Shown here one piece after another: positions 1 through 42,921 of a stretch of 64,000 nucleotides of DNA (its first letter is position 1; each line of letters starts with the position of its first letter). The stretch is taken from positions 309,954,335-310,018,334 of the forward strand of contig NC_052146.1 in assembly GCF_902713615.1 (NCBI RefSeq), written 5' to 3'. This DNA comes from Scyliorhinus canicula (taxonomy: Eukaryota). The translations under genes and the position numbers were made by a program. The notes beneath the pieces were generated by a model. That model saw nothing but the letters and a program-made list of their open reading frames with translations, made no database searches and was not told the origin of the DNA.

Positions 1-662
1 TCCCGTTCTTGGTCTGCAACTCTCAGGTATTTAAAGTCGTCAGGGTCTAGTAAAGTCTGTATCACGTAGAGATCGTTGTGGTGGCACTTACAGTTCGATG
101 GCTGATGGCTCAACGGCTGGTGATGGAACTGGAGTCAGGATGCGATGTATCAGCAAAGCGAAGCCGGAGCGATGACAACAGCAGAGAGCCGGAGCCAAAA
201 CAGACTGAACCATGTGCGGGGTCTACTTTTTCGGTCCCGCAAAGTCTGTGCCCCTTCGGGGCGGTCTTTTACCTGCCATGTATCGATTGGGCCTTTTCCC
301 AATCGATATCTTCCAAACCCCCCAATCTGAGGGTCGCTTCTCGATGGGTGGGGCGGTACCTATGGTTCTTTGTGTTGGATACTATGGTGCCGTTCTGTCT
401 GGGCGTCTACTCAAAAGTATCCATTCATACTTAAATGTTTCTATTGTGTGGGGTCTGGATCTGGATCACCTCATTACTATGTAGATCTTGTTGCCATTTA
501 CACCTTTGGCTGATACTCTGCACCTGGCCACAAACTGGTTTCTGGATGTGCAGAATGCTAATTAGTTTTCTGCAAACTGCTTGTCCTTGCTAAGACTGTT
601 TTCTCCCTGCAGTCTTAGCAGTTCTCCATTTTGTAGCCCAGTGTCCATCTTAGGTGGCTACA
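1..662 (-). mobile_element. LTR (5' LTR or solo LTR, runs off the window edge) of a subfamily related to the 16933-26831 provirus
   Basis: The reverse complement begins TGTAGCCACCTAAGATGGAC, versus TGTAGCCACCTAAAATGGAC at 16933. Colinear shared blocks follow (GCTAAGACTGCAGGGA, CAGAAACCAGTTTG, CCCACACAATAGAAACATTT). It abuts CR1 sequence at 663, with no PPT. Confidence 0.8.
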
Positions 663-16190: not shown

Positions 16191-16932
16191 AAAAATAAAA
16201 ATTTACACTTGCTCAAAGTAAGACAATCAGAGACCGGCTGTCTGCAAACAAAAGGAATATGTTCAAGCCGTGCTCCTTTATTTGATAGAAACAGGAGCTT
16301 TGGGAGCCTTGAATTCGTGGTATTCTCCATGGCAACGTTTCAGCCAATCAGAGTTGACTTTCTTTTTTATTAATTTTTATTGTCACAAATAGGCTTACAT
16401 TAACACTGCAATAAAGTTACTGTAAAATGCTCCAAGTCGCCACATTCCGTCGGCAGTTCGGGTACACAGAGGGAGAGTTCAGAATGTCCAAATTACCAAA
16501 CAACACGGGCAGGATTCCCCGACCCCCCCCCCCCCCCCACCCCACCCCAACCCCGCCGAGTCAGAGAATCGGCAGGGGGGACGGCGTGAATCCCACCCCC
16601 GCCGGCTGCCAAATTCTCCGGCACTGGAAATTTGCCGGGGGCGAGAATCGGCTCTCCCGACAATTCCCCGGCCCGTGATGGGCCGAGTGGCCACCCCTTT
16701 GTTGCTGGTCCCGCCGGCATAAATTATAATAGCTCCTTACCAGTGGGACCTGGTGGCGCAGGCGGCCTCCGGTGTCCACGGGGTGGGGGGGGGGGGGGTA
16801 ACCCCCCATGCGCATGCGCTGGAATGATGCCAGCACAAGCTGGCGTTCCGCGCATGCGCCAACTCGGGCCGGCTGGCGTGGCGCCAATCAACTTCCCCGC
16901 CGGTCGGCACAGCCGGCCTAGCCCCTGAAGGT

Positions 16933-17894
16933 TGTAGCCACCTAAAATGGACGTTGAGCTGCAAAGTAAGCCAAGCGCTAAGACTGCAGGGAAAAAGGCA
17001 GTTTAGCCAAAACAGCAGTCTGCAAAGAGAGCATTTTGCATTCTGCAAGTAGCAGAAACCAGTTTGGTCTCAGGTGAGAAGACCTTAGTTCGGTGCAAAT
17101 GGCAAAACGCTTTGCATACTAATGAGGCAATCAGACCTGAACACCCACACAATAGAAACATTTGACTCTGAATGGACACATTTGAACCAAGGCCCAGACA
17201 TCGAGGCACCAGAAACCTCCAAACAAAAGGGCATAAGAAACGCCCCCCCCATCACGGAGACCCCCTCGCATTGGGGAATTCAAACAGTATCGATGAGGAA
17301 TTGACCCAATAGATAACCAAAGGTTAAAGCCCGCCCCAAAAAGGCATGGAGATTGGGATCCCTATAAAAGACAGGGACCTCGTGTTGTCCGGTCTGTTTT
17401 GTGCTCCGGCTACCTGTGATCCTGAACTTGACTCCTGACTCCAGCCGTTGAGCACCAGCCGCTGAACCGTGAGTAATACACGACGCTCGCTACGCGAACC
17501 AGCTACCGATAGACCCTGACAACCAGCATACCCTCTGAAGGTGCAGCCCCAAGATCAGAAGGAAGGCCTTGCTCCCTGACCTTGCCGGTTCCCACTTAGT
17601 TAAGTATACTGATCATTTAGTTTAGTCATAGCTTAGTCTCGTAGTGTGTGCATGGGTATTTATTATTTGTCATAATAAATACAATTCGTTTAGAACTCAC
17701 TAATCGGTGTATCGTCTTTATTACTTTGAACCTGACCTTGAAATACTTGTGACGGTGTCTAGATACGGCACCTGGCGACTCCGAGCTAGAAGAATACACA
17801 TACAGAGCCTAGTAGTGTTAAGCACACGACCTTACGGAGGCGTGTTAATACACTCCAATAAACGCGTTTTACACCCAAAGTAAAACGTGCAACA
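16933..17894 (+). repeat. 5' LTR (962 bp)
   Basis: TGTAGCC...GCAACA, with TATAAAA at 17363, a GTGAGT donor at 17469, and AATAAA motifs in the 3' part. By eye it differs from the 3' LTR by about 10 substitutions plus a 2-bp poly-C indel. Confidence 0.95.
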
Positions 17895-17899
17895 TTTAG

Positions 17900-17919
17900 T
17901 GGCGACATCCTGCCGGGAC
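17900..17919 (+). promoter_or_regulatory. Putative primer-binding site TGGCGACATCCTGCCGGGAC
   Basis: It starts with TGG, 5 nt after the LTR end. I could not assign the tRNA. Confidence 0.5.
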
Positions 17920-18213
17920 ACGGTTGTAAGTGGTAACCCCACTCCGTCCAGGACCCTGAAATTTGAATTGGAACTCCAAAATACAGAGAAAGTAAAAAAA
18001 TCACAAGTCTTCAAGGTGTTCAAACTAATAAGCGTAATTCGGAAGTGTGTTTAGTGCATGCGTACTAACAGGGCTGTAAGGTAAAACTGAAAGCTTTTTG
18101 TTGCGACAAACTTTCGGTAGTTTTGTGAACGGAACATAGCATAAGCCGTACCCGTTTCGTGAGACACAACCCCAGCACCCCCTGTTCCAAATTTAAAAAA
18201 AGAGTCAGAGAAA

Positions 18214-19968
18214 ATGGCCATGCAGGCAATGGAACGTCTGATGGATCCAGAAAGGTTTGTGGTCGCAGCGACCAGTGGTAGCAGAGTAGGTCAGTGTCCC
18301 GTGTGGGAGCTGGAACTCCGCAAATACCTACAAGGAAAGGGATGGCCCCTTTGGAAAGAGTTTTGTCTGAATGAGGAGCCAGGTCCCGGAAGTATTGGCC
18401 ATACTTGGTGGGAGAACCTCTCTCAAATTCACAAAAAGAATATAGGAAAAGTGCGTAAGCTGATGCCGATTGTGTCCTGTCTGGCACAGTTGCGAGGCAC
18501 AGAGGAGGTCGTTAGGACGCTCCGAGCAGAGTTGGAGGACAGAGACCGAATGGGTAAGGTGGATGTCAGGGACATCGAAAAGGAAAACATGGAGCTTAGA
18601 GGGAAGTTGGCAGAGAAGGGTAGAGAGGTGGAGGATGCCAAGAGGGCACACCAGTCTTGTCTAGCCCATCTCAGCAGTTCCCAAACTCAATATGAGAAAG
18701 CCTATCAGGACGTGCAGCGTGCCGTTCTGGTAAGAGAACAAGCAGAGAAGCAGGTAGAGGCGTTGCAGAAGCAATGCTCTGACCTGAAGGCAGCTTTAAG
18801 AGCACTCCACGCTACTAACACAGAACAGAGACAAAGCACAGTAGACCACGCGAAATGCAGAAAACAGATTGCGGAACTGCAATCTCTGCTTTCGGTGCAA
18901 AACGGGTTCCAGAGCACCTTTGGAACGCAGTTAGATGAAGAAAATGCCCCAGATTGTCAAGAGTTGAGCGAAACTGCGCAGCGTTATGTTCAGAGAACAT
19001 GTGCGCCAGCAGCGCAGCAGAAAAGACAAGCACCCCAACCCCCCACACACCCTCCAGATCAGATAGTCACCGCACCCATGAATCCCGTAACCACACAAAG
19101 GAAAGCAACCACCGAAGGCGCACCCGATATAACCTACACCACCCCCTTAACGGTAACCCAGCTCAGGGACGCATGTGAAAAGATCACTCCGTTCCTCCCC
19201 ACCGCAGACCCCCACCAGTTCTTTGCTAAAGTAAAACAACAGGCGACCATGTACGGCCTGGATGAGAGAGAGCAGGTTAAGCTCACCGTGCTGAGCTTAG
19301 ACCAGTCAGTAGTAGCAGCCCTCCCCGACCCACAGAACGTTGGCGGAGGCACCCTTGAGGAAATGCACACCTCCATTTTAGACGCTATAGGGTACAATCG
19401 AGGTGACCCTGTAGAAGGACTGAACAAGTGCCGGCAAAAGAAAACCGAGCACCCCACAGCATTCGCAGGAAGGCTGTGGATTCATTTTAACGCAGTTTTT
19501 GGCGAGTTAAACAGAGCCCATTTAAGCCGCGAAAACATGGTTAAATGGACGCGCACCCTGATTTCACACGCGACAGAGGCAGGACAGAGCGCTTGCCACA
19601 GTTACGACCCCTCAGAAGAGGCCCACAATGAGAAATGGGTCCTGAAAAGGTTGTCCCGCGCTTGGGAGCAATCACTTCAGGGCAAAAGTAAGGTTAAATC
19701 CCCAGAGGAAGCTCAGGCTGCAGCAGATATTCAGGCAGTGAGAGCGCACCAAAACCCCGCGTGGGTAAATGAAGGGAAGAGCAGCCCTCCACAGAAGTCG
19801 CAGGAATGCTATAACTGTGGACAGTTAGGGCATTGGGCCAAAGAGTGTAATGCACCCCAGAGATCTCAGAGAGGCCAGCAGACAGGCACTCTGAACCGCA
19901 ACAAAGCAAAACCCATCCACAATATAGCAATACAGTCAGGACCCACCAATGTGGACGAGACGAACTGA
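18214..19968 (+). CDS. gag: Gag (584 aa)
   Basis: First long ORF after the leader. It has a coiled-coil region, a capsid-like segment (QKKTEHPTAFAGRL) and one CCHC knuckle, CYNCGQLGHWAKEC. Confidence 0.88.
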   Translation: MAMQAMERLMDPERFVVAATSGSRVGQCPVWELELRKYLQGKGWPLWKEFCLNEEPGPGSIGHTWWENLSQIHKKNIGKVRKLMPIVSCLAQLRGTEEVVRTLRAELEDRDRMGKVDVRDIEKENMELRGKLAEKGREVEDAKRAHQSCLAHLSSSQTQYEKAYQDVQRAVLVREQAEKQVEALQKQCSDLKAALRALHATNTEQRQSTVDHAKCRKQIAELQSLLSVQNGFQSTFGTQLDEENAPDCQELSETAQRYVQRTCAPAAQQKRQAPQPPTHPPDQIVTAPMNPVTTQRKATTEGAPDITYTTPLTVTQLRDACEKITPFLPTADPHQFFAKVKQQATMYGLDEREQVKLTVLSLDQSVVAALPDPQNVGGGTLEEMHTSILDAIGYNRGDPVEGLNKCRQKKTEHPTAFAGRLWIHFNAVFGELNRAHLSRENMVKWTRTLISHATEAGQSACHSYDPSEEAHNEKWVLKRLSRAWEQSLQGKSKVKSPEEAQAAADIQAVRAHQNPAWVNEGKSSPPQKSQECYNCGQLGHWAKECNAPQRSQRGQQTGTLNRNKAKPIHNIAIQSGPTNVDETN

Positions 19969-22900
19969 CGGTGTTCGGGCTCCCCCACTTGGGTCTGTGA
20001 CACACTATGGGATCCGTCAGGGAGACCCGTAGTCACGGCAAAAGTAAAAGGGAAGCCCATAGAGTTACTTTGGGACACAGGAGGGTCCCGCACCACAATA
20101 AACTCCACGACCACGGCACAGGCAGACACGTGGCCGACCACATCCACCATCACACTTAGCGGGTTCACAGGACACTCGCAGCAGGGACATATCACAGCAC
20201 CCGTAGCGATCCAGCTAGGGAACATTTCCACCAAACACCCCGTTGTTTTAGTAAATCTTCCCCGGACAGCAGAACACATCCTGGGGATAGATTTTATGAA
20301 TGCTCATAGCCTGTCGTTCGACCCAGTGAACCAGTGTGTCTGGCGAATGGCTCGATCGGACAGAGCACCAGCTACTCTCAAAGTAGGAGAGTACGCTAAC
20401 AGGATTAGTGCAGTAGGAGAGTACTCCTTTGACCTGACTACACTCCACACCGACAGACAAATAAAGGCACTTCTAAACAAACACAGGACAGCATTTGCCA
20501 GTCACCGTCATGACTGTGGCAGAATGACTGGACCAATCCACGTTACCGGACCGGACCCCCGACCACAGAAACAGTATAGATTTCCCCTGGAAGCAGAGGC
20601 GGAAATAGAGAAAGTTATAGGAAGCTTATTGGAGCAAGGTGTGCTCAGAACGGTAGCCTCGACCAATAATGCCCCTATTTGGCCAGTGAGGAAGCCCGAT
20701 GGATCATGGCGTCTGACCATCGATTATCGGGAACTCAACAAAGTCACCCCCGCAGTAGCCCCAACGATAGCTACTAGTCCCGAGACCATGCTCAAGCAGG
20801 GACTCAACTCCAAATATTTCACGGTATTGGACATTAGTAATGGCTTCTGGTCAATACCATTGGCAAAAGCGTGCCAGTACAAATTTGCCTTCACTTTCAA
20901 ATCGCAGCAGTATACGTGGACATGCCTTCCACAAGGATTCCACAACTCCCCCTCCATTTTCCACCGACAGTTGGTAAGTGGTTTAGAAAAATTTTCCCGC
21001 CCCGAATGTCTGGTACAGTATGTAGACGACCTACTACTGCAGACAGACACAAAGGCAGAGCACATTTCGCTTCTGGCCGAACTCCTGGAACTCTTGACTG
21101 AAATTGGATGTAAAGTTAACCCGAGAAAGGCCCAGATTTTGGCAGATAAAGTGATGTATTTGGGTACAGTCATCACGCACGGCAAACGCGAGATCGAATT
21201 CAAAAGAATTGATTCGATCGTCAAATTGCCCCTTCCCCAAAATGTTTCGGCCCTCCGGTCGTTTTTAGGACTGGTTGGCTATTGTCGGAACCACATCGAC
21301 GGATTCGCGACAAAAGCCGCCCCACTCTCAGACCTCCTTAAGAAAGGAGCCCCCTGGGAATGGCTTCCGCAGCACACAGAGGCTGTTGAGGAGTTAAAAA
21401 GAGCCCTTAGCGCAGCACCCGCGCTGCTAGTCCCAGACCCACTTTCCCCCTATGCAATAGAGGTAGCGAGCACCGATCTGACCCTCTCGGCCGTGTTGCT
21501 TCAGGAACGGCACGAGCAGCTAAGACCAGTGGCTTATGCCTCACGACTGTTAGACCCGGTTGAACAAGGATTCTCAGCCTGTGAGAGGCACCTCCTTGCT
21601 GTCTTCTGGGCAGTACAATATTTCTCTTACATTACCGGACTCAACCCCATTACTATTCTGACCGAACACACACCCACACAGTTACTCCTAGATGGTCGAC
21701 TGAAGGACGGTTCAGTTAGCCAGATTAGGGCAGCTAGGTGGACCCTACTCTTACAAGGACGGGACATTACAGTTAAACGGACCCGCACACACACATATTT
21801 AGCAGACAATCTTCAATACCCCGGACAGCCCCATGAATGTGAAATTGTAGCTCCCCTACATAACACAGGACCCTTTATAGCAAAGACACCCCCCAGGAAG
21901 ATAGGGAATCCAGCACAAGGCACCCCACACGCAGACACGTGTGGACCCCTGAGGATTTACGTGGACGGTTCATCCACAGTTTTAAATGGTGAGCGTATCA
22001 CAGGATGCGGCATCTATGTCGAGGACGCGCAGGGTCGCGCACTCGAAGAAATAGCACTCAAATTGCCAGGTCACTTAGGCGCGCAGGCAGCAGAGCTCGC
22101 GGCCATAGCTTATATAGTGGACCACCCCGATTCTTTCCCCAGCCCAGCAGACATATATTCAGACAGTTTATATGTCTGTAATAGTTTCACAGATTTTCTG
22201 CCCCTGTGGAGGACACGAGGTTTTGTCTCCGCAGACGGGAAACCCCTTCCATCAGCCCCTTTACTCCAGCACATCTTAGAAAAAGCGAAGGACAGGACCT
22301 TCGGCATAATAAAGGTAAGAAGTCACCATAGGTCATCCCCCCCTGGGAATGTAAAGGCCGACGCATTGGCTAAGGCAGGTTCCAGGCGAGGACACTTATG
22401 GACCCCCCCAGCTAGTGCACCAGCTAGCGCCCCTGTGAGCGCAGTCCAAGTCTCACAGACTGACATTAAAGATCTTGTAGAGGCACAGAAGCAGGATGAG
22501 GATCTCAGGGAGATTTTCAAAGGAAACTTTGTGCCACAATACGATAGATTCAAACACGCACTGACCACACATGAGGGTGTGATCATTAAGGACCAGCTTT
22601 ATGTGGTCCCGAAGCAGGACAGGAATCAGATGATTGCCTTGTTCCATGACGGACACGGGCATCAAGGAATTGACGCAACTACTAGGCACCTCAGGCAGCT
22701 CTGTTGGTGGCCTAATCTAAGGACCGATGTGACACATTATATCGAGAATTGCCTTATTTGCGCTCAGAATAACCCGGAGAGGTATTCTAAAAAAGCCCAA
22801 CTTCGGCATACTCGACCAGTTAACGGCCCCTGGACGAACCTCCAGATCGACTTTATAGGACCATTGCCCCCTTGTAGGAATGGCTATAAATACGTTCTGG

Positions 22901-24195
22901 TGGTGATCGACACTTTTACCAAGTGGGTAGAGGCATTTCCCTCTCGTACGAACACAGCTAAGACAGCTGCTAAAATTCTGACGCACCACATCTTCACAAG
23001 ATGGGGTTTACCGCGTAGTATTGATTCGGACCAGGGATCTCATTTTACAGGACGTGTCATGAAGAGCGTCCTGACAATATTTGGCATAAAACAAAATTTC
23101 CACATTGCGTATCATCCACAGTCCAGCGGGATTGTGGAGCGCATGAATCGGACCCTAAAAACAACCCTTAGGAAAATGGTACAGGAAAACAATTCGACAT
23201 GGGATTCAGTGCTCCCATTTGCACTCATGTTCATAAGAAACACTGTCTCCACATCCACAGGTTACACACCACACAAACTCATGACCGGACGCCCTATGAA
23301 AGGTACGGAATTCCTTTTAGGACTTGACATGACTAGCCCCGAAGTAACGGCCCTCACACATGAAAGAGCAGTTAAAGACCTAGTTGAGACTGTGAGGTCT
23401 GCACAGCTCGCAGCCGCAGTTCGACTAGGCAAACGACGTCAGCAAAGCACTGCGTGCTTTGACAAGACTGTTCACCCCACAGAATTCCAGGTTGGGCAAC
23501 AGGTAATGTTATCTGTTTACAACCCCAGCAGTTTTTTGGCTCCAAAATTTTCCGGCCCCTACTCAATTGCGGATAAAATTAGCCCCTCTGTGTATAAAAT
23601 CAAATATCCTAACGGGAAGACTGCGTGGTTTCATATTAACCAGCTTAAAGCATATGGAACACAGTCTAACCATGCTCATCATGTACTGCTAGATGCAGCA
23701 GAACACTTCACCCCGCCCACTAGAGACACTTTTCCACCATCCCCCTCACAGACCAGTTCATCAATGGACTCGCCCACGACTCCGCCCACTGACCACGACA
23801 GACCACGCCCCGAAACGCCCACAAGCTGCCGCAGCAGAGACAGCAGGACAGACACTGACTCTGAGGACAGTGACAGCACACAGCCATACAGCCCACACTA
23901 CACCGACTATGACCCCGACTCCAGTGACCCCATGGAAGTCACTTACCTTAAAAACCCAGAACCACCACCCGACCCCGACTACCCCGACAACACACTTGAC
24001 ACAGCACTCTGGCACAGGGACAATTCGTGCAGACATGTCCGCAACGATGAAAGTGACCCCCGGTCACATAATTATAAGATTGCATGCCTGATCCACACAA
24101 GGGTGTGGGATCCGGGAGAGCAGGACGACACGGTGTCTGAATCCCGATACGGCAACCCCTTTGTGACCCTGTTCACAGAGGCAGAGTCAAAGTGA
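19969..24195 (+). CDS. pol: Pro-Pol (protease, RT, tether RH, RNase H, integrase, C-terminal extension), in frame with gag after a single TGA
   Basis: The frame is open from 19969; the ORF track starts only at the Met at 20296. Motifs: LLWDTGGS/ILGIDF (PR); LPQGFHNSP, YVDD at 21019 (RT); RPVAYASR...ERHLLAV (tether); YVDGS...AELAAI...YSDS...GNVKADALA (RNase H); HHCC, QIDFIGP, SDQGSHF, GIVERMN, GPY (IN). Confidence 0.93.
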   Translation, partial: RCSGSPTWVCDTLWDPSGRPVVTAKVKGKPIELLWDTGGSRTTINSTTTAQADTWPTTSTITLSGFTGHSQQGHITAPVAIQLGNISTKHPVVLVNLPRTAEHILGIDFMNAHSLSFDPVNQCVWRMARSDRAPATLKVGEYANRISAVGEYSFDLTTLHTDRQIKALLNKHRTAFASHRHDCGRMTGPIHVTGPDPRPQKQYRFPLEAEAEIEKVIGSLLEQGVLRTVASTNNAPIWPVRKPDGSWRLTIDYRELNKVTPAVAPTIATSPETMLKQGLNSKYFTVLDISNGFWSIPLAKACQYKFAFTFKSQQYTWTCLPQGFHNSPSIFHRQLVSGLEKFSRPECLVQYVDDLLLQTDTKAEHISLLAELLELLTEIGCKVNPRKAQILADKVMYLGTVITHGKREIEFKRIDSIVKLPLPQNVSALRSFLGLVGYCRNHIDGFATKAAPLSDLLKKGAPWEWLPQHTEAVEELKRALSAAPALLVPDPLSPYAIEVASTDLTLSAVLLQERHEQLRPVAYASRLLDPVEQGFSACERHLLAVFWAVQYFSYITGLNPITILTEHTPTQLLLDGRLKDGSVSQIRAARWTLLLQGRDITVKRTRTHTYLADNLQYPGQPHECEIVAPLHNTGPFIAKTPPRKIGNPAQGTPHADTCGPLRIYVDGSSTVLNGERITGCGIYVEDAQGRALEEIALKLPGHLGAQAAELAAIAYIVDHPDSFPSPADIYSDSLYVCNSFTDFLPLWRTRGFVSADGKPLPSAPLLQHILEKAKDRTFGIIKVRSHHRSSPPGNVKADALAKAGSRRGHLWTPPASAPASAPVSAVQVSQTDIKDLVEAQKQDEDLREIFKGNFVPQYDRFKHALTTHEGVIIKDQLYVVPKQDRNQMIALFHDGHGHQGIDATTRHLRQLCWWPNLRTDVTHYIENCLICAQNNPERYSKKAQLRHTRPVNGPWTNLQIDFIGPLPPCRNGYKYVLVVIDTFTKWVEAFPSRTNTAKTAAKILTHHIFTRWGLPRSIDSDQGSHFTGRVMKSVLTIFGIKQNFHIAYHPQSSGIVERMNRTLKTTLRKMVQENNSTWDSVLPFALMFIRNTVSTSTGYTPHKLMTGRPMKGTEFLLGLDMTSPEVTALTHERAVKDLVETVRSAQLAAAVRLGKRRQQSTACFDKTVHPTEFQVGQQVMLSVYNPSSFLAPKFSGPYSIADKISPSVYKIKYPNGKTAWFHINQLKAYGTQSNHAHHVLLDAAEHFTPPTRDTFPPSPSQTSSSMDSPTTPPTDHDRPRPETPTSCRSRDSRTDTDSEDSDSTQPYSPHYTDYDPDSSDPMEVTYLKNPEPPPDPDYPDNTLDTALWHRDNSCRHVRNDESDPRSHNYKIACLIHTRVWDPGEQDDTVSESRYGNPFVTLFTEAESK

Positions 24196-25150
24196 GGTGT
24201 CCAGATGATGTAACATAGGAATCGTTTGAGGGAAGCGATGTCCTTTCTGATGGAACCTGCACGTATGTTTGTCTATCGTTTTATGTTTGTTTGTCTTTCA
24301 GGAATGTAAATGGTTCAGTTGGAGGATGGACATCTTCTTTTCAGCTGAAAAGATTGTGACCACCTCACACACACGTTAGCTTGTCCGCCGATACCTTTGA
24401 GAACTTCAGTTCCCAAACCCGTTTGATTGGAGATCTTTTCAAGTTGTAAGGCTTGTGACCACCTTACACACACAATAGTTTATCTGCAGATACCTGTGAG
24501 AACTTCAGGTTCTGTCCTCAGTTGGAGCATCTTGGCTCCCTTGTTTTTGTTAGGTGCCCCTCTATTCGGCGAATAGAGGCTGCAAGTCACGGTGACCACA
24601 TTCTTACCCGTTTAATCCAGGTTACTCAGGCAGTGGACAAACGGCACTGAGGACCCGCCCTGTCTGAGAACCAACCTTGGTCAGCCAAGCTCGGGTATGG
24701 CACAGCACGCCCTACCCGGGGATCCCATCCAACTCGTACCCGTCGCGGCCCATACGCAACTCATTCGAACGTTTCTTTCAAAATTTGTTTTCATTTTAGT
24801 TAGGTAGCCCTTCGGCCGCCATCCCACATGCTATTTACATCCGGGAACATTCGGATGGTAAACTAGCAAAGCCTGCGAGACGGCTCGCAGGAGAAGGATT
24901 GTTAGGTGTATTCTGGTCTTCAAATTCGCTTTTGAAAAAAAAAAAATGAGGGGAGTCACAGGGTGTGACTTGGCCAGTCATTTTTAAAGGGTCAATTGGA
25001 ATTTAAAAGACAGATGCACTAACAGGTAAAGATCTTAAACTGTGTATTGACAGATACTGTGCTTGATCCCATAGCTTTCGAAGGACGAGACAGGAATCGA
25101 AGCAAGGATTGTCCATACAGGAGGAAGAAAGAAGGAAGAACAAGTTGAAG

Positions 25151-25495
25151 ATGATGGAAGCTCACCTATTACTATTGAATGTTATATTTGTTTGTGTACA
25201 AACCAGCCATGTTTCCCCCACAACCCCCGCCGTTAATGTTTCCCTCACAGCAAGTCCCCCGTGCTCAGCTCTGATCAGCGAGGTTCAGACCTGGTGCACG
25301 AAGTTTATGACATGGTACTCCATGTCATACGTGATCGAATCACTGCTAGTGATTGCGATCATCTGTATCATCATCCAAACCCTCAGGTTGAGGAAGTGGA
25401 AGAGGAGAGCCTCCCGCTCCTGCCCCTCAACCATCTATGGGGTACAATCCCCTATCTTCGGGTTTCACCAATCCCCCCAGCCCCTCACTGATTAA
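25151..25495 (+). CDS. Small type-I membrane protein (114 aa) in the env position
   Basis: MMEAHLLLLNVIFVCV (signal-like), a short Pro/Thr/Cys ectodomain with an NVS sequon, TM SLLVIAIICIIIQTL, basic RLRKWKRR and a short tail. A ccatacag acceptor lies at ~25120. Confidence 0.7.
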   Translation: MMEAHLLLLNVIFVCVQTSHVSPTTPAVNVSLTASPPCSALISEVQTWCTKFMTWYSMSYVIESLLVIAIICIIIQTLRLRKWKRRASRSCPSTIYGVQSPIFGFHQSPQPLTD

Positions 25496-25855
25496 AGCAC
25501 TCTGTAAATAAAATTCTACCATGTATTATATTGTCCTACACTCGACTGCCGAGTTAGGAAGTGTGATGTTGTGGTGTGAATGGTTAAGGTTTTTTAGAGT
25601 GTGATAAATGTTTAAGTTAAGGATAAGGATAGTTTGATAGGTAGAGGTTCCCGGTTTTTGTAATGCATGTCCCTTTGACATAGGGCCAAGTAGAATGTTA
25701 GTTAAATTTTTTTTTCTTCTTCCCATAGTTTAGGATAGAGAAGCCCAGGAACTGGCAAGAGGTCAGGGAACACAGGGAACACACAGAGAAGGCACCCAGA
25801 AGCACTCAGCACGACCTGCATGGGTGATCCTTCACAATTTTCAATTGTGAGGATC

Positions 25856-25867
25856 ACAAGGAGGGAA
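25856..25867 (+). promoter_or_regulatory. Polypurine tract
   Basis: ACAAGGAGGGAA lies immediately before the TG of the 3' LTR. Confidence 0.75.
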
Positions 25868-26831
25868 TGTAGCCACCTAAAATGGACGCTGAGCTGCAAA
25901 GTAAGCCAAGCGCTAAGACTGCAGGGAAAAATGCAGTTTAGCCAAAACAGCAGTCTGCAAAGAGAGCATTTTGCATTCTGCAAGTAGCAGAAACCAGTTT
26001 GGGCTCAGGTGAGAAGACCTTAGTTAGGTGCAAATGGCAAAACGCTTTGCATACTAATGAGGCAATCAGACCTGAACACCCACACAATAGAAACATTTGA
26101 CTCTGAATGGACACATTTGAACCAAGGCCCAGACATCGAGGCACCAGAAACCTCCAAACAAAAGGGCATAAGAAACGCCCCCCCCCCATCACGGAGACCC
26201 CCTCGCATTGGGGAATTCAGACAGTATCGATGAGGAATTGACCCAATAGATAACCAAAGGTTAAAGCCCGCCCCAAAAAGGCACGGACATTGGGATCCCT
26301 ATAAAAGACAGGGACCTCGTGTTGTCCGGTCTGTTTTGTGCTCTGGCTACCTGTGATCCTGAACTTGACTCCTGACTCCAGCCGTTGAGCACCAGCCGCT
26401 GAACCGTGAGTAATACACGACGCTCGCTACGCGAACCAGCTACCGATAGACCCTGACGACCAGCATACCCTCTGAAGGTGCAGCCCCAAGATCAGAAGGA
26501 AGGCCTTGCTCCCTGACCTTGCCGGTTCCCACTTAGTTAAGTATACTGATCGTTTAGTTTAGTCATAGCTTAGTCTCGTAGTGTGTGCATGGGTATTTAT
26601 TATTTGTCATAATAAATACAATTCGTTTAGAACTCACTAATCGGTGTATCGTCTTTATTACTTTGAACCTGACCTTGAAATACTTGTGACGGTGTCTAGA
26701 TACGGCACCTGGCGACTCCGAGCTAGAAGAATACACATACAGAGCCTAGTAGTGTTAAGCACACGACCTTACGGAGGCGTGTTAATACACTCCAATAAAC
26801 GCGTTTTACACCCAAAGTAAAACGTGCAACA
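25868..26831 (+). repeat. 3' LTR (964 bp)
   Basis: Direct repeat of 16933-17894. Confidence 0.95.
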
Positions 26832-27606
26832 AGGTGCAGAGGATTCCGCACATTTGGGGCGGCTCGACGCCGGAGTGGTTCCCGCCACTCCTTCCCGTCA
26901 GGGTTGATTCCCGTCCCGCTGATTCCCGCAGAATCCCGCCCCACTTCTTTCGGGAATTGTGGGAGGAAACCAGAGGACCCGGAGGAAACCCACGCAGACA
27001 CGATGAGAAACATGCAGACTCCGCACTGACAGTGACTCACGCCGGGAATCGAAACTGGGACCCGAGATCAGTGAAGCAACAGTGCCAACCACTGCGCTGC
27101 AGTGCAACCCATTAGCCCCATTTTCCCCTTTAAAATAAATTGTAATTCTTTGAAATTAAATATTCCTGAAATGAAATGAAAATGAAAAGCGCTTATTGTC
27201 ACAAGTAGGCTTCAATGAAGTTACCGTGAAAGCCCCTTCTCGCCACATTCTGGCACCTGTTCGGGGAGGCTGGTACAGGAATTGGACCGTGTTGCTGGCC
27301 TGCCCTGGTCTGCTTTCAAAGCCAGCTATTAAGCCCAGAGTGCTAAACCAGCCTGTGTGTGTTTATCTTGGTGTGTACAAATTGAAAAACTTCAACAATG
27401 AGTCACTTTTCACAAGATTCAATCCTAAACAATAAAGCGACTGATTTTTTATTGACTCACACAAATATATTTTGCTTTATTCAAATGAATCAGCTCTTCG
27501 GTTCAATCTTAGAATCTGGTTCTCTCCTTTTCAAACAGAACATTCTCTTTAAACACTTTGGAACCTTCAGACTGGTGTTTAACTTGTTGATATTTTTCTC
27601 TGAAAG

Positions 27607-27951
27607 GTGCGAATGCTCCAGTCCTTATCCAGTCCCCGAGTCTGGAACGTGTCACAGAGGGTCAGACTGCACGGTTACAGTGCACCATGCGGAACGCCGC
27701 AGTGACACACACCGATGTTCACTGGAACCGGGAGCTGCCAGGGAAAGATAGGGAGAGGGTTTTAACACATGATATAAAGAACAACACACAACGGAGTCCA
27801 GGATTCAATGAGCGTTTTCATCCTTCCCGAGACACGGTCAATAAAACCTTCATCCTGACAATCAGCAACGTGCAGCCCAGTGACACTGCCGTCTATTACT
27901 GCTCCGTGTGGGGATATATCAGTGGGAATGGATCACAGCTGAATGTAACCA
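27607..27951 (+). CDS. V2 exon (VJ-type Ig domain, phase 1/1)
   Basis: ctctgaaag|GT GCG AAT...ACC A|gtaagt. Encodes ANAPVLIQSP...YYCSVWGYISGNGSQLNVT. Confidence 0.9.
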
Positions 27952-28359
27952 GTAAGTACAGTTTCCATGAGTCTCATGTGGTTTTGCTCACAGATGGAAT
28001 CTTCTTGAACTTATCTTCCAGAATATAAATTCTTTGACTCCTTTGTTTACTCAGGTTACTACCAATGTGGTGCCTCGACCTGTTTTGTTTTATATTCATA
28101 CTTTATTGGCAAGGTGCCATCCCTAACTGCCCTGGAGAAGGTGGTGGTGAGCTGCTGCACTCCATGTGGTGTAGGTACTGCTGTTAGGGAGGGAGTTCCA
28201 GGATTGTGACCCAGCGACAGTGAAGGAACGGCGATACATTTTGTTACGACACCCCGGGCCAGTGCATGGGCAATTCCAGCCCCACAGACCCCGGATTCCC
28301 AACATAATTGAATTAACCAGGAACTTGTGTACTTTTCTGAGATCTTTGACCCTTGATGG

Positions 28360-28707
28360 GGGTAGCATGGTGGTTAGCATCAATGCTTCACAGCTCCAGG
28401 GGTCCCAGGTTCGATTCCCGGCTGGGTCACTGTCTGTGTGGAGTCTACACGTCCTCCCCCTGTGTGCGTGGGTTTCCTCCGGGTGCTCCGGTTTCCTCCC
28501 ACAGTCCAAAGATGTGCGGGTTAGGTGGATTGGCCATGCTAAATTGCCCGTAGTGTCCTAATAAAAAAGTAAGGTTAAGGGGGGGGTTGTTGGGTTACGG
28601 GTATAGGGTGGATACGTGGGTTTGAGTAGGGTGATCATGGCTCGGCACAACATTGAGGGCCGAAGGGCCTGTTCTGTGCTGTACTGTTCTATATTCTATG
28701 TTCTATG
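28360..28707 (+). mobile_element. HE1-like SINE inserted only in the V2 repeat unit
   Basis: tRNA head plus a CR1-like (CTATGTT)n tail. The other units read ccttgatg/tctccaatg without interruption. Confidence 0.88.
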
Positions 28708-29577
28708 TCTCCAATGAGTTACAGGCACCAGATTTGAAAGTAAAATATCAGAACTGTTTATTTATGAAAAGAGTAAAAGATGAACATATAATGGAAATAA
28801 TGTAACACTGATCTACTAGTCTAACTATTCCCCAAACACCATCCCACGCTACACCAACATGCACACAAGACAGACACACAGGCGGGAAGGGAAAGGATCG
28901 AAATGATGGGGATTAAACTGGGTGTGAGATATTTGACAAACTTTGCTGCTGAGGTTGAGGTCTTTGTTGACTTTGTTTTTTAATAATCTTTATTGTCACA
29001 GTAAGCTCACATTATCACTGCAATGATGTTACTGTGAAAAGCTCCTCGTCACCACATTCCAGCTCCTGTTCGGGGACACAGAAGGAGAATTCAGAATGTT
29101 CAAATTGTCTGACAACACATCTTTTGGGGCTTGTGGGAGGAAACTGGAGCAGCTACGCAGATGCAGGGAGAATGTACAGACTCAATACAGACAGTGAACC
29201 AAGCCAGGAATCAAACCCAGGACCCGAGAGCAGTGAAACAACAGTGATAACCACTGCAGTGCAGTGCCGCCATTAGCACCATTTTCCCCTGTAGAATAAA
29301 TTGAGATTCTTTGAAATTTAACATTCCTGTTTTTTCTCGATGAGTACATAGCGAAAAACTTCAGCAATGTGTCTCTATTCGACAGGATTCAATCTTAAAC
29401 AACAAAGCAACTGTTTTTTTTATTTACTCACACAAATATATTTTGCTTAATTTGAATGAATCAGCCCATCGGTTCAGTCTTAGAATCTGGTTCACTCTTT
29501 TTAACACCGAACATTCCCTTTCAACACTTTGGAACCTTCAGACTGGTGTTTAACTTGTTGATATTTTTCTTTGAAAG

Positions 29578-29922
29578 GTGCGAATGCTCCAGTCCTTATC
29601 CAGTCCCCGAGTCTGGAACGTGTCACAGAGGGTCAGACTGCACGGTTACAGTGCACCATGCGGAACGCCGCAGTGACACACACCGATGTTCACTGGAACC
29701 GGGAGCTGCCAGGGAAAGATATGGAGAGGGTTTTAACACATGATATAAAGAACAATACACAACGGAGTCCAGGTTTCACTGAGCGCTTTCATCCTTCCCG
29801 AGACACGTCCAATAAAACCTTCATCCTGACAATCAGCAACGTGCAGCCCAATGACACTGCCGTCTATTACTGCTCCGTGTGGGGAGCTATCAGTGGGAAT
29901 GGATCACAGCTGAATGTAACCA
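29578..29922 (+). CDS. V3 exon
   Basis: Same splice signals, 345 nt, open frame; ends ...SVWGAISGNGSQLNVT. Confidence 0.9.
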
Positions 29923-31200
29923 GTAAGTACAGTTTCCATGAGTCTCATGTGGTTTTGCTCACAGATGGAATCTTTTTGAACTTATCTTCCAGAGCTTAAA
30001 TTTTTTGACTCCTTTGTTTACTCAGTTTATTGCCAATGTGGTGCCTCGAGCTGGTTGGTTTTATATTCATACTTTATTGGCAAGGTGCCATCCCTAACTG
30101 CCCTGGAGAAGGTGGTGGTGAGCTGCTGCACTCCATGTGGTGTAGGTACTGCTGTTAGGGAGGGAGTTCCAGGATTGTGACCCAGCGACAGTGAAGGAAC
30201 GGCGATACATTTTGTTACGACACCCTGGGCCAACGCATGGTCAATCCCAGCCCCACAGACCCCGGATTCCCAACGTAATTCAATTAACCAGGAACTTGTG
30301 TACTTTTCTGAGATCTTTGACCCTTGATGTCTCCAATGAGTTACAGGCACGAGGTTTGAAAGTAAAATGTCAGAACTGTTTATTTATGAAAAGAGTAAAA
30401 GATGAACATATAATGGAAGTAATGTAACACTGATCTACTAGTCTAGCTATTCCCCAAACACCGTCCCACGCTACACCCACATGCACACAAGACAGACACA
30501 CAGGCGGGAAGGGAAAGGATCGAAATGATGGGGATTAAACTGGGTGTGAGATATTTGCCAAACTTTGCTGCTGAGGTTCAGGTCTTTTTTGACTTTGTTT
30601 TTTAATAATCTTTATTGTCACAGTAAGCTTACATTATCACTACAATGATGTTACTGTGAAAAGCTCCTCGTCACCATATTCCAGCTCCTGTTCGGGGACA
30701 TAGAGGGAGAATTCAGACTGTTCAAATTACCTAACAACACATGTTTTGGGGCTTGTGGGAGGAAACCGGAGCAGCTACGCAGATGCAGGGAGAATGTACA
30801 GACTCAATACAGACAGTGAACCAAGCCAGGAATCGAACCCAGGACCCGAGAGCAGTGAAACAACAGTGATAACCACTGCAGTGCAGTGCCGCCCATTAGC
30901 ACCATTTTCCCCTGTAGAATAAATTGAGATTCTTTGAAATTTAACATTCCTGTTTTTTCTCGATGAGTACATAGCGAAAAACTTCAGCAATGTGTCTCTA
31001 TTTGACAGGATTCAATCCTAAACAACAAAGCAACTGTTTTTTTTATTTACTCATCCAAATATATTTTGCTTAATTTGAATGAATCAGCCCATTGGTTCAG
31101 TCTTAGAATCTGGTTCTCTCTTTTTAACACCGAACATTCCCTTTCAACACTTTGGAACCTTCAGACTGGTGTTTAACTTGTTGATGTTTTTCTCTGAAAG

Positions 31201-31545
31201 GTGCGAATGCTCCAGTCCTTATCCAGTCTCCGAGTCTGGAACGTGTCACAGAGGGTCAGACTGCACGGTTACAGTGCACCATGCGGAACGCCGCAGTGAC
31301 ACACACCGATGTTCACTGGAACCGGGAGCTGCCAGGGAAAGATATGGAGAGGGTTTTAACACATGATATAAAGAACAACACACAACGGAGTCCGGGTTTC
31401 ACTGAGCGTTTCCATCCTTCCCGAGACACGGCCAATAAAACCTTCATCCTGACAATCAGCAACGTGCAGCCCAGTGACACTGCCGTCTATTACTGCTCCG
31501 TGTGGGGAGATATCAGTGGGAATGGATCACAGCTGAATGTAACCA
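31201..31545 (+). CDS. V4 exon
   Basis: Same splice signals, 345 nt, open frame; ends ...SVWGDISGNGSQLNVT. Confidence 0.9.
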
Positions 31546-32823
31546 GTAAGTACAGTTTCCATGAGTCTCATGTGGTTTTGCTCACAGATGGAATCTTCTT
31601 GAACTTATCTTCCAGAGCTTAAATTCTTTGACTCCTTTGTTTACTCAGGTTATTGCCAATGTGGTGCCCCGAGCTGGTTGGTTATATGTTCATGCTTTAT
31701 TGGCAAGGTGCCATCCCTAACTGCCCTGGAGAAGGTGGTGGTGAGCTGCTGCACTCCATGTGGTGTAGGTACTGCTGTTAGGGAGGGAGTTCCAGGATCG
31801 TGACCCAGCAACAGTGAAGGAATGGCGATGCATTTTGTTACGACACCCTGGGCCAGTGCATGGTCAGTTCCAGCCCCACAGACCCCGGATTCCCAACATA
31901 ATTGAATTAACCAGAAACTTGTGTACTTTTCTGAGATCTTTGACCCTTGATGTCTCCAATGAGTGACAGGCACCAGATTTGAAAGTAAAATATCAGAACT
32001 GTTTATTTATGAAAAGAGTAAAAGATGAACATATAATGGAAATAATGTAACACTGATCTACTAGTCTAACTATTCCCCAAACACCATCCCACGCTCCACC
32101 CACATGCACAAAAGACAGACACACAGGCGGGAAGGGAAAGGATCGAAATGATGGGGATTAAACTGGGTGTGAGATATTTGACAAACTTTGCTGCTGAGGT
32201 TGAGGTCTTTGTTGACTTTGTTTTTTAATAATCTTTATTGTCACAGTAAGCTTACATTATCACTGCAATGATGTTACTGTGAAAAGCTCTCGTCACCACA
32301 TTCCAGCTCCTGTTCAGGGACACAGAAGGAGAATTCAGAATGTTCAAATTATCTAACAACACATCTTTTGGGGCTTGTGGTAGGAAACTGGAGCAGCTAC
32401 GCAGATGCAGGGAGAATGTACAGACTCAATACAGACAGTGAACCAAGCCAGGAATCAAACCCAGGACCCGAGAGCAGTGAAACAACAGTGATAACCACTG
32501 CAGTGCAGTGCCGCCATTAGCACCATTTTCCCCTGTAGAATAAATTGAGATTCTTTGAAATTTAACATTCCTGTCTTTTTCTCGATGAGTACATAGCGAA
32601 AAACTTCAGCAATGTGTCTCTATTTGACAGGATTCAATCCTAAAAAACAAAGCAACTGTTTTTTTTTATTTACTCACACAAATATATTTTGCTTAATTTT
32701 AATGAGTCAGCCCATCGGTTCAGTCTAAGAATCTGGTTCTCTCTTTTTAACATCGAACATTCCCTTTCAACACTTTGGAACCTTCAGACTGGTGTTTAAC
32801 TTGTTGATATTTTTCTCTGAAAG

Positions 32824-33168
32824 GTGCGAATGCTCCAGTCCTTATCCAGTCCCCGAGTCTGGAACGTGTCACAGAGGGTCAGACTGCACGGTTACAGTGC
32901 ACCATGCGGAACGCCGCAGTGACACACACCGATGTTCACTGGGACCGGGAGTTGCCAGGGAAAGATATGGAGAGGGTTTTAACACATGATATAAAGAATA
33001 ACACACAACGGAGTCCGGGTTTCACTGAGCGTTTCCATCCTTCCCGAGACACGGCGAATAAAACCTTCATCCTGACAATCAGCAACGTGCAGCCCAGTGA
33101 CACTGCCGTCTATTACTGCTCCGTGTGGGGAGATATCAGTGGGAATGGATCACAGCTGAATGTAACCA
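32824..33168 (+). CDS. V5 exon
   Basis: Same splice signals, 345 nt, open frame; ends ...SVWGDISGNGSQLNVT. Confidence 0.9.
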
Positions 33169-34546
33169 GTAAGTACAGTTTCTATGAGTCTCATGTGGTT
33201 TTGGTCACAGATGGAATCTTCCTGAACTTATCTTCCAGACTTAAATTCTTTGACTCCTTTGTTTACTCAGGTTATTGCCAATGCGGTGCCTCGAGCTGGT
33301 TGGTTTTATATTCATACTTTATTGGCAAGGTGCCATCCCTAACTGCCCTGGAGAAGGTGGTGGTGAGCTGCTGCACTCCATGTGGTGTAGGTACTGCTGT
33401 TAGGGAGGGAGTTCCAGGATTGTGACCCAGCGACAGTGTAGTAACGGCGATACATTTTGTTACGACACCCTGGGCCAGCGCACGGTCAGTTCCAGCCCCA
33501 CAGACCCCGGAGTCCCAACATAAGTCAATTAACCAGGAACTTGTGTACTTTCCTGATATCTTTGATCGTTGACCTCTCCAATCAGTTACAGGCACCAGTT
33601 TTGAATGTAAATCATTAGAACTGTTTATTTATAAAAAGAGTAAAGATGAACATATAATGGAAATAATGTAACACGGCACTACTAGTCTAACTATTCTCCA
33701 AACACCGTCCCACCCACCACCCACATGCACACAAGACAGACACACAGGGGGGAAGGGAAAGGATTGAAATGATGGGGATTAAACTGGGTGTGAGATATTT
33801 GAGGATCTTTGCTGCTGAGGTTGAGGTCTTTGTCGGCAGTGATCACTTCAGAATGCGAGATGTTGAACCATCAGTTGGGTTAGATCTTCAAGCTGGGCCA
33901 TTCAGGCTGGATTCTCAGGTTGTGGGATTCCATCTGGAAGGAGAACTTCAAACCAGCTGAGTTTCTGATATGTGGTCAGTTTCAGCAGACTCACCAACAA
34001 CTTGTCTCAGTTACACAGAATATTAGAGCAGCATTTTCGTGAGGCCTTTGACTGATCTGCTACCTTTAATAGAAGAGGGATCTGGAATGATCCCCCCTCC
34101 CCAGCTCTGTATTCAGGTTTTGAGTACTCACTAACTGCTCTGTGTACCTGAAGGGAGTTTAAACTGAGATTTGAGAGAGAATTGCCCTCTTCTGGGACAG
34201 AGATTCAAAAGGATTCTGCTCAGCTCTGCAGTTTGGAAAAATCTGGGTTGGCCAACACTGATTCGTCCTCCAACACAGCCGGACACTTCTCAGCTCAAAC
34301 TCTCTTTGGCATTCCGTGGACCACAACAGTTTTCCGTGTTTCTGTAACATGGCCAACATGCATTGTCCCTCAGTCTCTAACTGAGCCAGTCTCTGAGGGT
34401 TTGGTTTATAAGGAGGTGGCTTTGGGGTTTGAAAAGGTTTGAAGTCCCCACCATGGGGGGTGAACAGACTGCCCCCTGGTACTTCCCTCCAACTTGGTCT
34501 ACACTCCTTGGCACCATCTCTATACCTGACTCTGTCTGTCCCTCAC

Positions 34547-41010: not shown

Positions 41011-41197
41011 ATCGCTGTCCTCTCCCTCACACGGGAGACCACTCTCTCTCCTTCATTCTGTCGCCATTTCGCACACACACTGACTTGCAGAATCACTGCT
41101 TATTTTATTCTCAGACATTTTTTGAAAAGTTTCTAGCACCTTCTATGTGACCAGGTTAAAGTTGGGGACAGAGTTTGTGTGGGTTTCCAACCTGAAA

Positions 41198-41452
41198 CTT
41201 GAGGGGTGATTTTTTGAGGGGTGATTTTTTGAGGGGTGATTTGTTGAGGGGTGATTTGTTGAGGGGTGATTTGTTGAGGGCTGATTTGTTGAGGGGTGAT
41301 TTGTTGAGGGGCGATTTGTTGAGGGGTGATTTGTTGAGGGGTGATTTGTTGAGGGGTGATTTGTTGAGGGGTGATTTGTTGAGGGGTGATTTGTTGAGGG
41401 GTGATTTGTTGAGGGGTGATTTGTTGAGGGGTGATTTGTTGAGGGGTGATTT
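41198..41452. repeat. 15-bp minisatellite (TTGTTGAGGGGTGAT)n, ~17 copies
   Basis: The tandem array is directly visible. Confidence 0.95.
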
Positions 41453-42062
41453 TGAGCCCCTCTGCGTCCGTGAGAAAGTCACCGTGGGGCCTAAACTCTG
41501 TAGAGAAGCGAAAAATGTGATTCTCTTCCGCGTGATTGGTGTTTGGACAGATCATGCCATTGAAAACAATAACTTACATTCTAACACTGGGGACTGGATT
41601 CTCGGGCCCCCAGACGCATGTTCCTCGGCCGCGCGCTGTTCGCTGGCAGCGGGATTCTATCATTGAGGAGGTGGTGGGGAGCTGCCTTCTTGAACCGCTG
41701 CAGGCCCTGAGGTATAAGGACATGAAATGTAAAATATTCCCTGGGACTATTTGGAAGATGGGCAGAGGAATCATCCTTTAATGTCCTGGGTGATATTTAT
41801 CCCGAAAAAAAGTTACCAAAGCTGATTGGTCATTGTCACATTGTTATTTGTGGGATCTTGCTCTGCACAAATTCACATGTGTAGCAGAGCGACCAGAGTC
41901 AATACAAAACACATCCCAGCAGCCTGTCAGTACCTTCCAGAGAGAAAGGCAAAGAAGATGAAATCATTCAGTTATTAATAATAATACCGTTCGATCTGTT
42001 GACAGACATTCTTCCATTCTGTGTGGAAATAAATACTGATCAATATTTCTATTGGATTACAG

Positions 42063-42179: not shown

Positions 42180-42319
42180 ACCTCAAAACCAGCAATAATT
42201 AACCAGTGGGACAAGCAGCAGTGACCAAAACCTTACCCAATCACAATCATCTCGGCCTTTCCTGCACATTTCAACGGCTTCAATCTCTCAACAATATCAG
42301 AGCGAGATTGTAAATCCCA

Positions 42320-42921
42320 GACCCTGATATTACTGGGCACACAGACCCTGATATTACTGGACACACAGACCCTGATATTACTGGACACACAGACCCTGCT
42401 ATTACTGGGCACACAGACCCCTGATATTACTGGACACTCAGTCCCTGATATTACTGGACACACAGACCCTGATATTACTGGACACACAGACCCTGATATT
42501 GCTGGGCACACAGACCCTACCTGACCCTGATATTACTGGACACACAGACCCTGATATTACTGGACGCACAGACCCTGATATTACTGGACACACAGACCCT
42601 GATATTACTGGGCACACAGACCCTGATATTACTGGACACTCTGACTCTGATATTACTGGACACACAGACCCTGATATTACTGGACACACAGACCCTGATA
42701 TTACTGGACACACAGACCCTGATATTACTGGACACACAGACCCTGATATTACTGGACACACAGACCCTGATATTACTGGACACACAGACCCTGATATTAC
42801 TGGACACTCAGACCCTGATATTACTGGACACACACACCCTGATATTACTAGACACATATACCCTGATATTACTGGACACACACACCCTGATATTACTGGA
42901 CACACACACCCTGATATTACT
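42320..42921. repeat. 24-bp minisatellite (GACCCTGATATTACTGGACACACA)n, ~25 copies
   Basis: The tandem array is directly visible, ~140 bp after the receptor stop codon. Confidence 0.95.

Follow-up and report, generated by a model that had tools for sequence, protein, structure and literature searches.

An apparently undescribed family of small, predicted membrane proteins in the place of env in an intact, SnRV-like shark endogenous retrovirus

Results

An intact provirus without env

The window, that is, the whole 64,000-nucleotide stretch of Scyliorhinus canicula DNA analysed here, carries an intact provirus with open gag, pro-pol and a 114-aa ORF, flanked by LTRs that are 98.8% alike and by a 4-bp target-site duplication. 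The provirus is young, having been inserted recently. Its features, apart from the parts of the small ORF, are:

16929..16932, no strand: 5' target-site duplication AGGT, second copy at 26832-26835
16933..17894, + strand: 5' LTR, TG...CA; against the 3' LTR, 10 mismatches and one 2-nt gap over 964 columns
17469..17474, + strand: candidate splice donor GTGAGT in the LTR, from sequence only; reads of relatives have A at 17471
17900..17917, + strand: primer-binding site beginning TGG, read from the sequence
18214..19968, + strand: gag, 584 aa, open; one CCHC knuckle and a probable N-terminal coiled coil
19969..24195, + strand: pro-pol, 1408 codons open; protease region, RT, tether, RNase H, integrase, SH3-like domain
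24280..24301, + strand: strong candidate acceptor right after pol, in the bin where sense RNA depth rises
25016..25150, + strand: branch-point-like CACTAAC, candidate acceptors (AG ends 25053, 25074, 25120) and purine-rich leader; model junctions of relatives fall here
25507..25512, + strand: AATAAA; RNA depth does not fall 3' of the site
25707..25728, + strand: top-ranked acceptor of the internal region; the one ORF after it, of 55 codons from a Met at 25820, extends into the LTR
25858..25867, + strand: polypurine tract, read from the sequence
25868..26831, + strand: 3' LTR, from the LTR comparison

The primer-binding site at 17900 is probably of the Arg tRNA type; an Arg primer site and a coiled-coil Gag are features of the snakehead retrovirus (SnRV). 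The gag stop, TGA, is in frame with the downstream pro-pol and is followed by CGG (19966-19971), so that stop-codon readthrough is likely; the 110 nt after the stop fold modestly (z -1.9, with 8 of 200 shuffles as good). A motif scan of the 584 aa of Gag found neither Gly2 nor any PT/SAP, PPxY or YPxnL motif. Beyond the SH3-like domain of integrase, Pol runs on into a long C-terminal extension rich in Pro, Ser, Thr and Asp (23700-24195), overlapped in another frame by a 132-aa ORF (23693-24091).

Env is absent from the provirus. The pol stop (24195) and the 3' LTR are separated by 1.67 kb in which no frame exceeds 142 codons, the longest stop-free stretches being 84, 142 (the frame of the small ORF, open from 25067) and 63 codons. 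There is no CX6CC motif in this region, Pfam gave nothing under E 0.3 for its 10 other frames, and an Rfam scan of the whole element returned 0 matches. The preliminary description had named the ORF at 25151-25495 (+), of 114 aa, as the sole credible one here; we confirmed it, and it is the only Met-started plus-strand ORF of at least 60 aa between 24195 and the 3' LTR. The same region holds a tandem duplication of about 75 nt (24336-24409 and 24434-24508, 83% alike), across which relatives are deleted, and, at 24930-24954, a T-run, an A12 run and a purine stretch like a second polypurine tract, then a short inverted repeat.

About 0.5 kb downstream of the provirus begins an array of four tandem 1.6-2.0 kb units (27300-33900), each with an immunoglobulin V-set exon including a J-like end; a scan of these units found no heptamer. 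Minisatellites with periods of 15 and 24 nt lie at 41150-41510 and 42220-43030. At 1-662 (minus strand), next to a LINE fragment, lies a diverged LTR of the provirus's family. This had been proposed as a copy for comparison; it is an LTR only about 70% alike that leaves the window, and no ORF region is present there.

Affiliation of the element

By Pfam, Pol contains a tether and a second RNase H (PF17919/PF17917, then PF00075). Its closest matches, 43-48% identical, come from frogs and coelacanth and are named NYNRIN-like. We built an RT tree of 50 rows (the window and the 49 long enough among 52 of 120 matches listed), which contained no labelled SnRV or Loki row. The window falls in a supported 12-row set with frog and coelacanth Pols (97/87), nested in a 33-row set that includes gamma-type Pols (96/98); a 9-row fish set and 8 Gypsy-type rows are separate from the window's set. 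Among the rows compared from the PMC7947760 supplement, the window's RT motif is present in that of the snakehead retrovirus, by eye the closest of them. We read the provirus as an ERV of the SnRV clade, its RT appearing most like that of SnRV.

A lokiretrovirus, suggested by the NYNRIN-like names, was considered and dropped. Lokiretroviruses and Odin retrotransposons, as described in the consulted parts of PMC7947760 and PMC9040795, resemble the window's element in having a tether and RNase H, and Odin elements also lack env; lokiretroviruses, however, carry a paramyxovirus-F-like env, which this provirus lacks, and its RT motifs are clearly unlike the four Loki rows compared.

The small ORF and its relatives

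Rows in the following entries are those of the alignment described below.

25151..25495, + strand: small ORF, 114 aa, predicted type I membrane glycoprotein
25151..25207, + strand: aa 1-19, signal peptide predicted from hydropathy and, in relatives, from small residues ahead of the likely cleavage point
25208..25288, + strand: aa 20-46, variable Ser/Thr/Pro-rich stalk with a conserved N-glycan sequon at Asn29
25289..25330, + strand: aa 47-60, block of highest conservation: a membrane-proximal helix, aromatic and amphipathic, that holds the single invariant Cys
25331..25384, + strand: aa 61-78, transmembrane (TM) helix; Glu63 in 8/9 rows, Cys in 9/9
25385..25417, + strand: aa 79-89, juxtamembrane basic cluster; 6-8 Lys/Arg in 9/9 rows, invariant Lys82-Trp83
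25418..25492, + strand: aa 90-114, predicted disordered tail; Tyr95, Pro101 and Phe103 in the 7 rows with intact tails

The prediction for the product is a single-pass membrane protein with a signal peptide and N-glycosylation. The hydrophobic N-terminus, the NVS sequon (29), a TM segment at about 61-78 with Cys72, the basic cluster at 79-89 and a Ser/Thr/Pro-rich tail containing Tyr95 are all as first claimed. Over aa 41-55 the hydrophobic moment is 0.38-0.42 (a raw value), with the aromatics on one face, and the predicted structure is a single long helix (pTM 0.32).

A phmmer search with the ORF against 1.84 billion representatives gave 4 matches (E 3e-37 to 2e-13), and a profile search among proteins of 203-2000 aa gave 11 among 8000 candidates scored, the 4 phmmer matches included. 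The 11 relatives are gene models of S. canicula (2) and S. torazame (9), two of them isoforms of one gene, and represent about 10 loci in 3-4 lineages. Their upstream parts (SUGCT, CFAP36, PTGER3, HEPACAM2-like and LINE fragments) are unrelated to one another and to the element; homology begins in the purine-rich leader ahead of Met. They are chimeras, at the level of the transcript or of the model, rather than extended versions of the protein, and their loci presumably sit in ERV copies. The ORF might also have been a fragment of a longer env; no env-sized protein occurs among the 11 relatives, and the ORF is not a piece of one there. In S. torazame (P0124-P0131), at least 7 named host genes have isoforms ending in the small ORF, which suggests that the ERV family traps host transcripts; soluble proteins may gain a TM tail in this way.

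The alignment (n = 10) comprises the window ORF and, each from its Met, 9 of the 11 records; the redundant isoform was left aside, as was P0124, in which the N-terminal half is shifted in register. Pairwise identity ranges from 0.28 to 0.82. All ten rows have Met, a hydrophobic N-terminus, no Gly2, Trp48-Cys49 and a sequon at the aligned Asn, the last written as four different triplets, and each of the 9 rows reaching the TM segment has a Cys within one position in it, then 6-8 basic residues. Two ectodomain Cys had been described and both are present, but only Cys49 is conserved (10/10 rows); for Cys38, just 1 of 9 relatives has a Cys close by. A STAT3-type YxxQ signalling motif was dropped as a candidate, being in the first 3 tails seen yet in only 4 of 7 overall.

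Mean column identity is 0.33 in the signal, 0.43 in the stalk, 0.79 in aa 47-60, 0.57 in the TM segment, 0.75 in the basic cluster and 0.48 in the tail. A 43-column block as good arose in 2 of 20000 column shuffles (the rows being related), and neutral substitution to 40-61% identity, with indels not counted, kept the frame open in 3-10% of comparisons. These measures are based on identity, not dN/dS, and sampling through gene models favours open frames. Despite that bias, 5 of 10 loci are truncated, read on or are shifted: of the 9 relatives aligned, 5 have their stop no more than two columns from that of the window ORF, one continues past it, one departs from the alignment beyond about aa 95 and two are cut short. 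The blocky conservation nevertheless argues against a neutral frame, and on the strength of the alignment we regard the small ORF as real and as a member of a conserved family. The core of the preliminary description, a small single-pass protein located where env would be in a vertebrate retroelement that has none, thus stands.

Expression, splicing and polyadenylation

Four RNA runs from one organism were placed on 16934-25867; their reads are mostly 85-95% alike and represent the family, not the window locus. In X20 (stranded, oligo-dT), sense depth was 0.9-4.6 over gag, 5.5-11.3 over pol and 23 over 24086-24383, then 69, 59, 30, 62 and 45 over 24384-25867 up to the LTR and 59 in U3, while the opposite strand stayed below 3.4 throughout. 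Sense RNA of relatives thus rises about 5-fold in the 3' region. Contigs of X1 have a similar step; those of X16 are flat, with the ORF region near gag-pol depth, indicating that family members regularly include the 3' region. Reads cross 25867 directly into the LTR (24 in X20, 21 in X19), and relatives therefore have the same 3' junction without env. A bias towards 3' ends, the internal A12 run or shorter family members could each account for the depth step; the A12 run at 24935 can raise upstream depth and likely does so in X19. The AATAAA noted after the stop is indeed present at 25507 (+) but is not the main 3' end in the reads, where depth is 61.7, 44.9 and then 58.8 in U3. Among 40 of 1977 differences listed, the sole one inside the ORF (25303) is synonymous; two of the three contig pieces listed over its C-terminal third are gapless and the third has one gap.

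The GTGAGT donor motif at 17469 is present, as described. Reads spliced from 17468 to about 25121, as proposed, did not appear among the 15 of 20 joints listed for the four runs, and neither did any other joint that starts at the LTR donor. In relatives, indels fall exactly at this donor and may hide splice joints in reads. The acceptor first placed about 30 nt upstream of the ORF (AG ending 25120) proved weak, with 7/17 pyrimidines and rank 216 among the 358 YAG sites of the internal region, by a crude count rather than a splice model; on the same count AG 25074 ranks 37, 25053 ranks 98, 24301 ranks 7 and 25728 ranks 1. Four gene models with different upstream genes have one common join 22 codons before Met, and the alignment of P0122 begins at 25073. 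The gene-model junctions point to an acceptor about 45-76 nt upstream of the ATG (AG 25074 or 25053) more than to 25120. The leader at 25075-25150 is 74% purine. A purine-rich run like this leader also accompanies the acceptor at 25728, which is perhaps the trace of a lost gene.

Searches for homologues and comparison with FAST proteins

Similarity to FAST proteins or other fusogens was found neither by Pfam nor by PDB profile, Atlas features or fold search. The best PDB profile match to the ORF had E 0.87, and the fold search with the predicted structure (pTM 0.32) gave 0 matches at E<=0.001 and is uninformative. Atlas neighbours, which are leads only, reached at best 0.87; small chordate TM proteins scored 0.83-0.86, and DAP10 and influenza M2 are among the weak leads, all <0.9. 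No homology to an Env TM subunit was found by Pfam, among the 1.84 billion representatives or by protein or PDB profile, in a comparison that did not include SnRV-clade Env, and the window ORF has no detected sequence similarity to sORF2, the small TM protein of Drosophila elements. The ORF profile was confirmed in 0 of 69 metagenome and viral stretches and integrase in 0 of 7 viral contigs; a Pol profile kept 80 of 546 matches plus 1 viral one, all 23-37% identical and none with the small ORF.

The small ORF product had been called FAST-like; its membership of the FAST proteins is not supported. FAST and sORF2 proteins are described as 60-210 aa long with one TM segment, N-out/C-in; the product has 114 aa and one strong TM segment beyond its N-terminal stretch, with a topology that is predicted. 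They have no cleavable signal peptide, whereas the N-terminal stretch is hydrophobic in 10/10 rows and cleavage is predicted; they carry an N-myristoylation motif or a Cys-flanked hydrophobic patch, whereas Gly2 is missing in 10/10 rows and one ectodomain Cys is conserved; and they are not glycosylated, whereas a predicted site, the aligned sequon, is found in 10/10 rows. The juxtamembrane polybasic motif is present in 9/9 rows. Polybasic clusters are common after TM segments, and the cluster alone is weak evidence for a FAST protein. In the parts of PMC3952855 consulted, FAST proteins use the TM segment as a reverse signal anchor and have neither signal peptide nor glycosylation. By analogy, the small ORF product may work like FAST and sORF2 proteins, of which it appears not to be a member.

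Discussion

The small ORF thus appears to encode a signal-bearing membrane protein that occupies the place of env. As a tentative best reading, to which we give somewhat less than even chances, it would be a surface anchor that docks capsids at cell contacts for env-independent cell-to-cell transfer, analogous to sORF2; such a transfer role seems to be its single most likely function. The protein would be translated from a spliced 3' RNA and would lie N-out/C-in with a mature ectodomain of about 40 aa, whose aromatic membrane-proximal helix would act on membranes at close cell contacts and whose single Cys would link chains, probably making it a disulfide-linked surface protein. The basic cluster and the Tyr/Pro/Phe tail would bind capsid or cytoskeletal adaptors, and cores would then pass to a neighbouring cell, ideally from a somatic to a germ cell, without Env. 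The likeness to Drosophila sORF2 would be one of analogy, not descent.

Size, topology, the amphipathic ectodomain helix and the basic cluster appear to match the layout of sORF2 and FAST proteins. As Gag has neither Gly2 nor a canonical late domain, the usual route of membrane reach and budding is probably unavailable to it. A purely intracellular retrotransposon would have little use for a surface glycoprotein, the simplest use of which would be to replace the membrane role of Env. Against transfer, a conserved second Cys for a cystine loop is lacking, Gly2 is present in 0/10 rows, and the predicted signal peptide and sequon are unlike FAST; the constraint on the ORF may date from env-bearing ancestors. 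A bolder form of the transfer reading, which we consider doubtful, is that a catshark retrovirus lineage swapped env for its own minimal glycoprotein to move capsids from soma to germ cells, so that the sORF2 strategy would have evolved independently in Retroviridae with a signal peptide and glycan instead of myristate.

It is possible, if somewhat unlikely, that the product instead serves a complex SnRV-like retrovirus as a membrane glycoprotein of the accessory kind, whose job is not transfer (it might counter a restriction factor, down-regulate a surface protein, or signal through the TM Glu and tail Tyr), and that it was retained when env was lost in a separate step. The consulted parts of PMC12193657 give SnRV an env and four accessory ORFs (52, 94, 76 and 205 aa) on spliced RNAs, and membership of such a lineage strengthens the accessory option that the preliminary description had raised. 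The strong acceptors at 24301 and 25728 lead to no clear gene, as if genes had been lost. A signal peptide, glycan, ectodomain Cys and acidic TM residue are typical of adaptor-like or Vpu-like proteins; the window protein fits in all four, and the weak Atlas leads to DAP10 and influenza M2 also speak for such a job. However, an accessory protein would bring little gain to an intracellular retrotransposon, yet the ORF is intact beside an intact gag-pol; the signalling motif YxxQ occurs in only 4/7 tails; and accessory proteins of SnRV or other viruses were unmatched among the 1.84 billion representatives. We consider it unlikely that the ORF is a miniaturised env, with a signal peptide fused to the membrane-proximal region, TM segment and tail of a lost Env and kept for membrane targeting. 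Class I fusion proteins have a signal peptide, a glycan site and an aromatic membrane-proximal helix at their ends, which the ORF resembles, as it does in position; against this, the 11 profile matches among 8000 scored (203-2000 aa) are all host chimeras with no env, the region has no CX6CC, and the tail has 36 aa against the 136 aa of the SnRV Env tail (PMC12193657, consulted parts).

A bona fide FAST-type fusogen that forms syncytia on its own seems more improbable still: size, the single TM segment, the amphipathic helix, the basic cluster, possible acylation of the TM Cys and a post-cleavage ectodomain inside the 10-50-aa range would suit it, but it would lack both a myristoylation motif and a cystine loop and would carry, besides the predicted signal peptide, a glycan site that is conserved and set in a mucin-like stalk. 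Least probable of all, we think, is that the ORF was taken from a host gene encoding a small membrane protein, or has no function at all. Crocodilian ERVs have captured host membrane-protein mRNAs (PMC4299795), and the Atlas neighbours include small chordate TM proteins (0.83-0.86); no host homologue was found at E<=0.001 among the 1.84 billion representatives or in Pfam, and blocky conservation speaks against a frame without function.

Loss of Env is taken to confine a vertebrate ERV to its cell. A small conserved surface protein that stands in the place of env, in a family that is intact and was inserted recently, would make a first candidate in Retroviridae for spread independent of env; should it turn out to be an accessory protein, it would still represent an undescribed retroviral protein family. 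Such a family in the place of env in an intact SnRV-like shark ERV is apparently undescribed: in the literature covered on sORF2 and FAST proteins, shark ERVs, SnRV-like/ERV4 elements and lokiretroviruses, with subscription papers, Repbase and preprint supplements largely outside its scope, we found no small TM gene replacing env of a vertebrate ERV. The consulted part of a screen that includes S. canicula (PMC10699275) gives ERVs by Pol only. The apparent trapping of transcripts from at least 7 named catshark genes is also relevant to annotation and perhaps to host gene regulation.

Among known systems, the SnRV clade (PMC12193657, PMC4422223, PMC4977317 and PMC6001957, in the parts consulted) resembles the window's provirus in its RT motifs, complex splicing and small ORFs, and SnRV-like ERVs are described there from elephant shark, coelacanth and frogs; the elephant-shark screen counted env-bearing elements only. 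SnRV, however, carries env, which its spread requires (PMC12193657), whereas the provirus has none, and the parts of the SnRV-clade literature covered describe no small TM ORF of the catshark family. The reovirus FAST proteins p10, p13-p16 and p22 (PMC3952855 and PMC12945298, consulted parts) share with the small ORF product a length of about 100-200 aa, an N-out single TM segment, a juxtamembrane basic cluster and a Pro-rich tail, but differ in having a myristate or a Cys-flanked hydrophobic patch, without signal peptide or glycosylation.

The closest parallel to the transfer reading is sORF2 (Voichek et al., 10.1101/2025.03.14.642691, in the parts consulted); the preliminary description had correctly pointed to a small TM protein in env-less Drosophila MDG1-group elements. 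Like the window's provirus, these are env-less LTR elements with a small single-pass protein, which has a short ectodomain with an amphipathic motif and a basic patch after the TM segment and which, in some moth elements, lies downstream of pol. In the same report, sORF2 accompanies capsids in follicle-cell protrusions that enter the oocyte; fusion of cultured cells was not reproduced, and the requirement for sORF2 was not tested. The screen for its relatives covered arthropod elements and required an N-myristoylation motif, a filter that its authors name as a limit and outside which the small ORF product falls. Whereas sORF2 proteins have 63-107 aa, are mostly N-myristoylated and come from unspliced RNA of insect Metaviridae, the protein described here belongs to vertebrate Retroviridae, has no Gly2, combines a predicted signal peptide with a conserved glycan site, and is probably made from spliced RNA.
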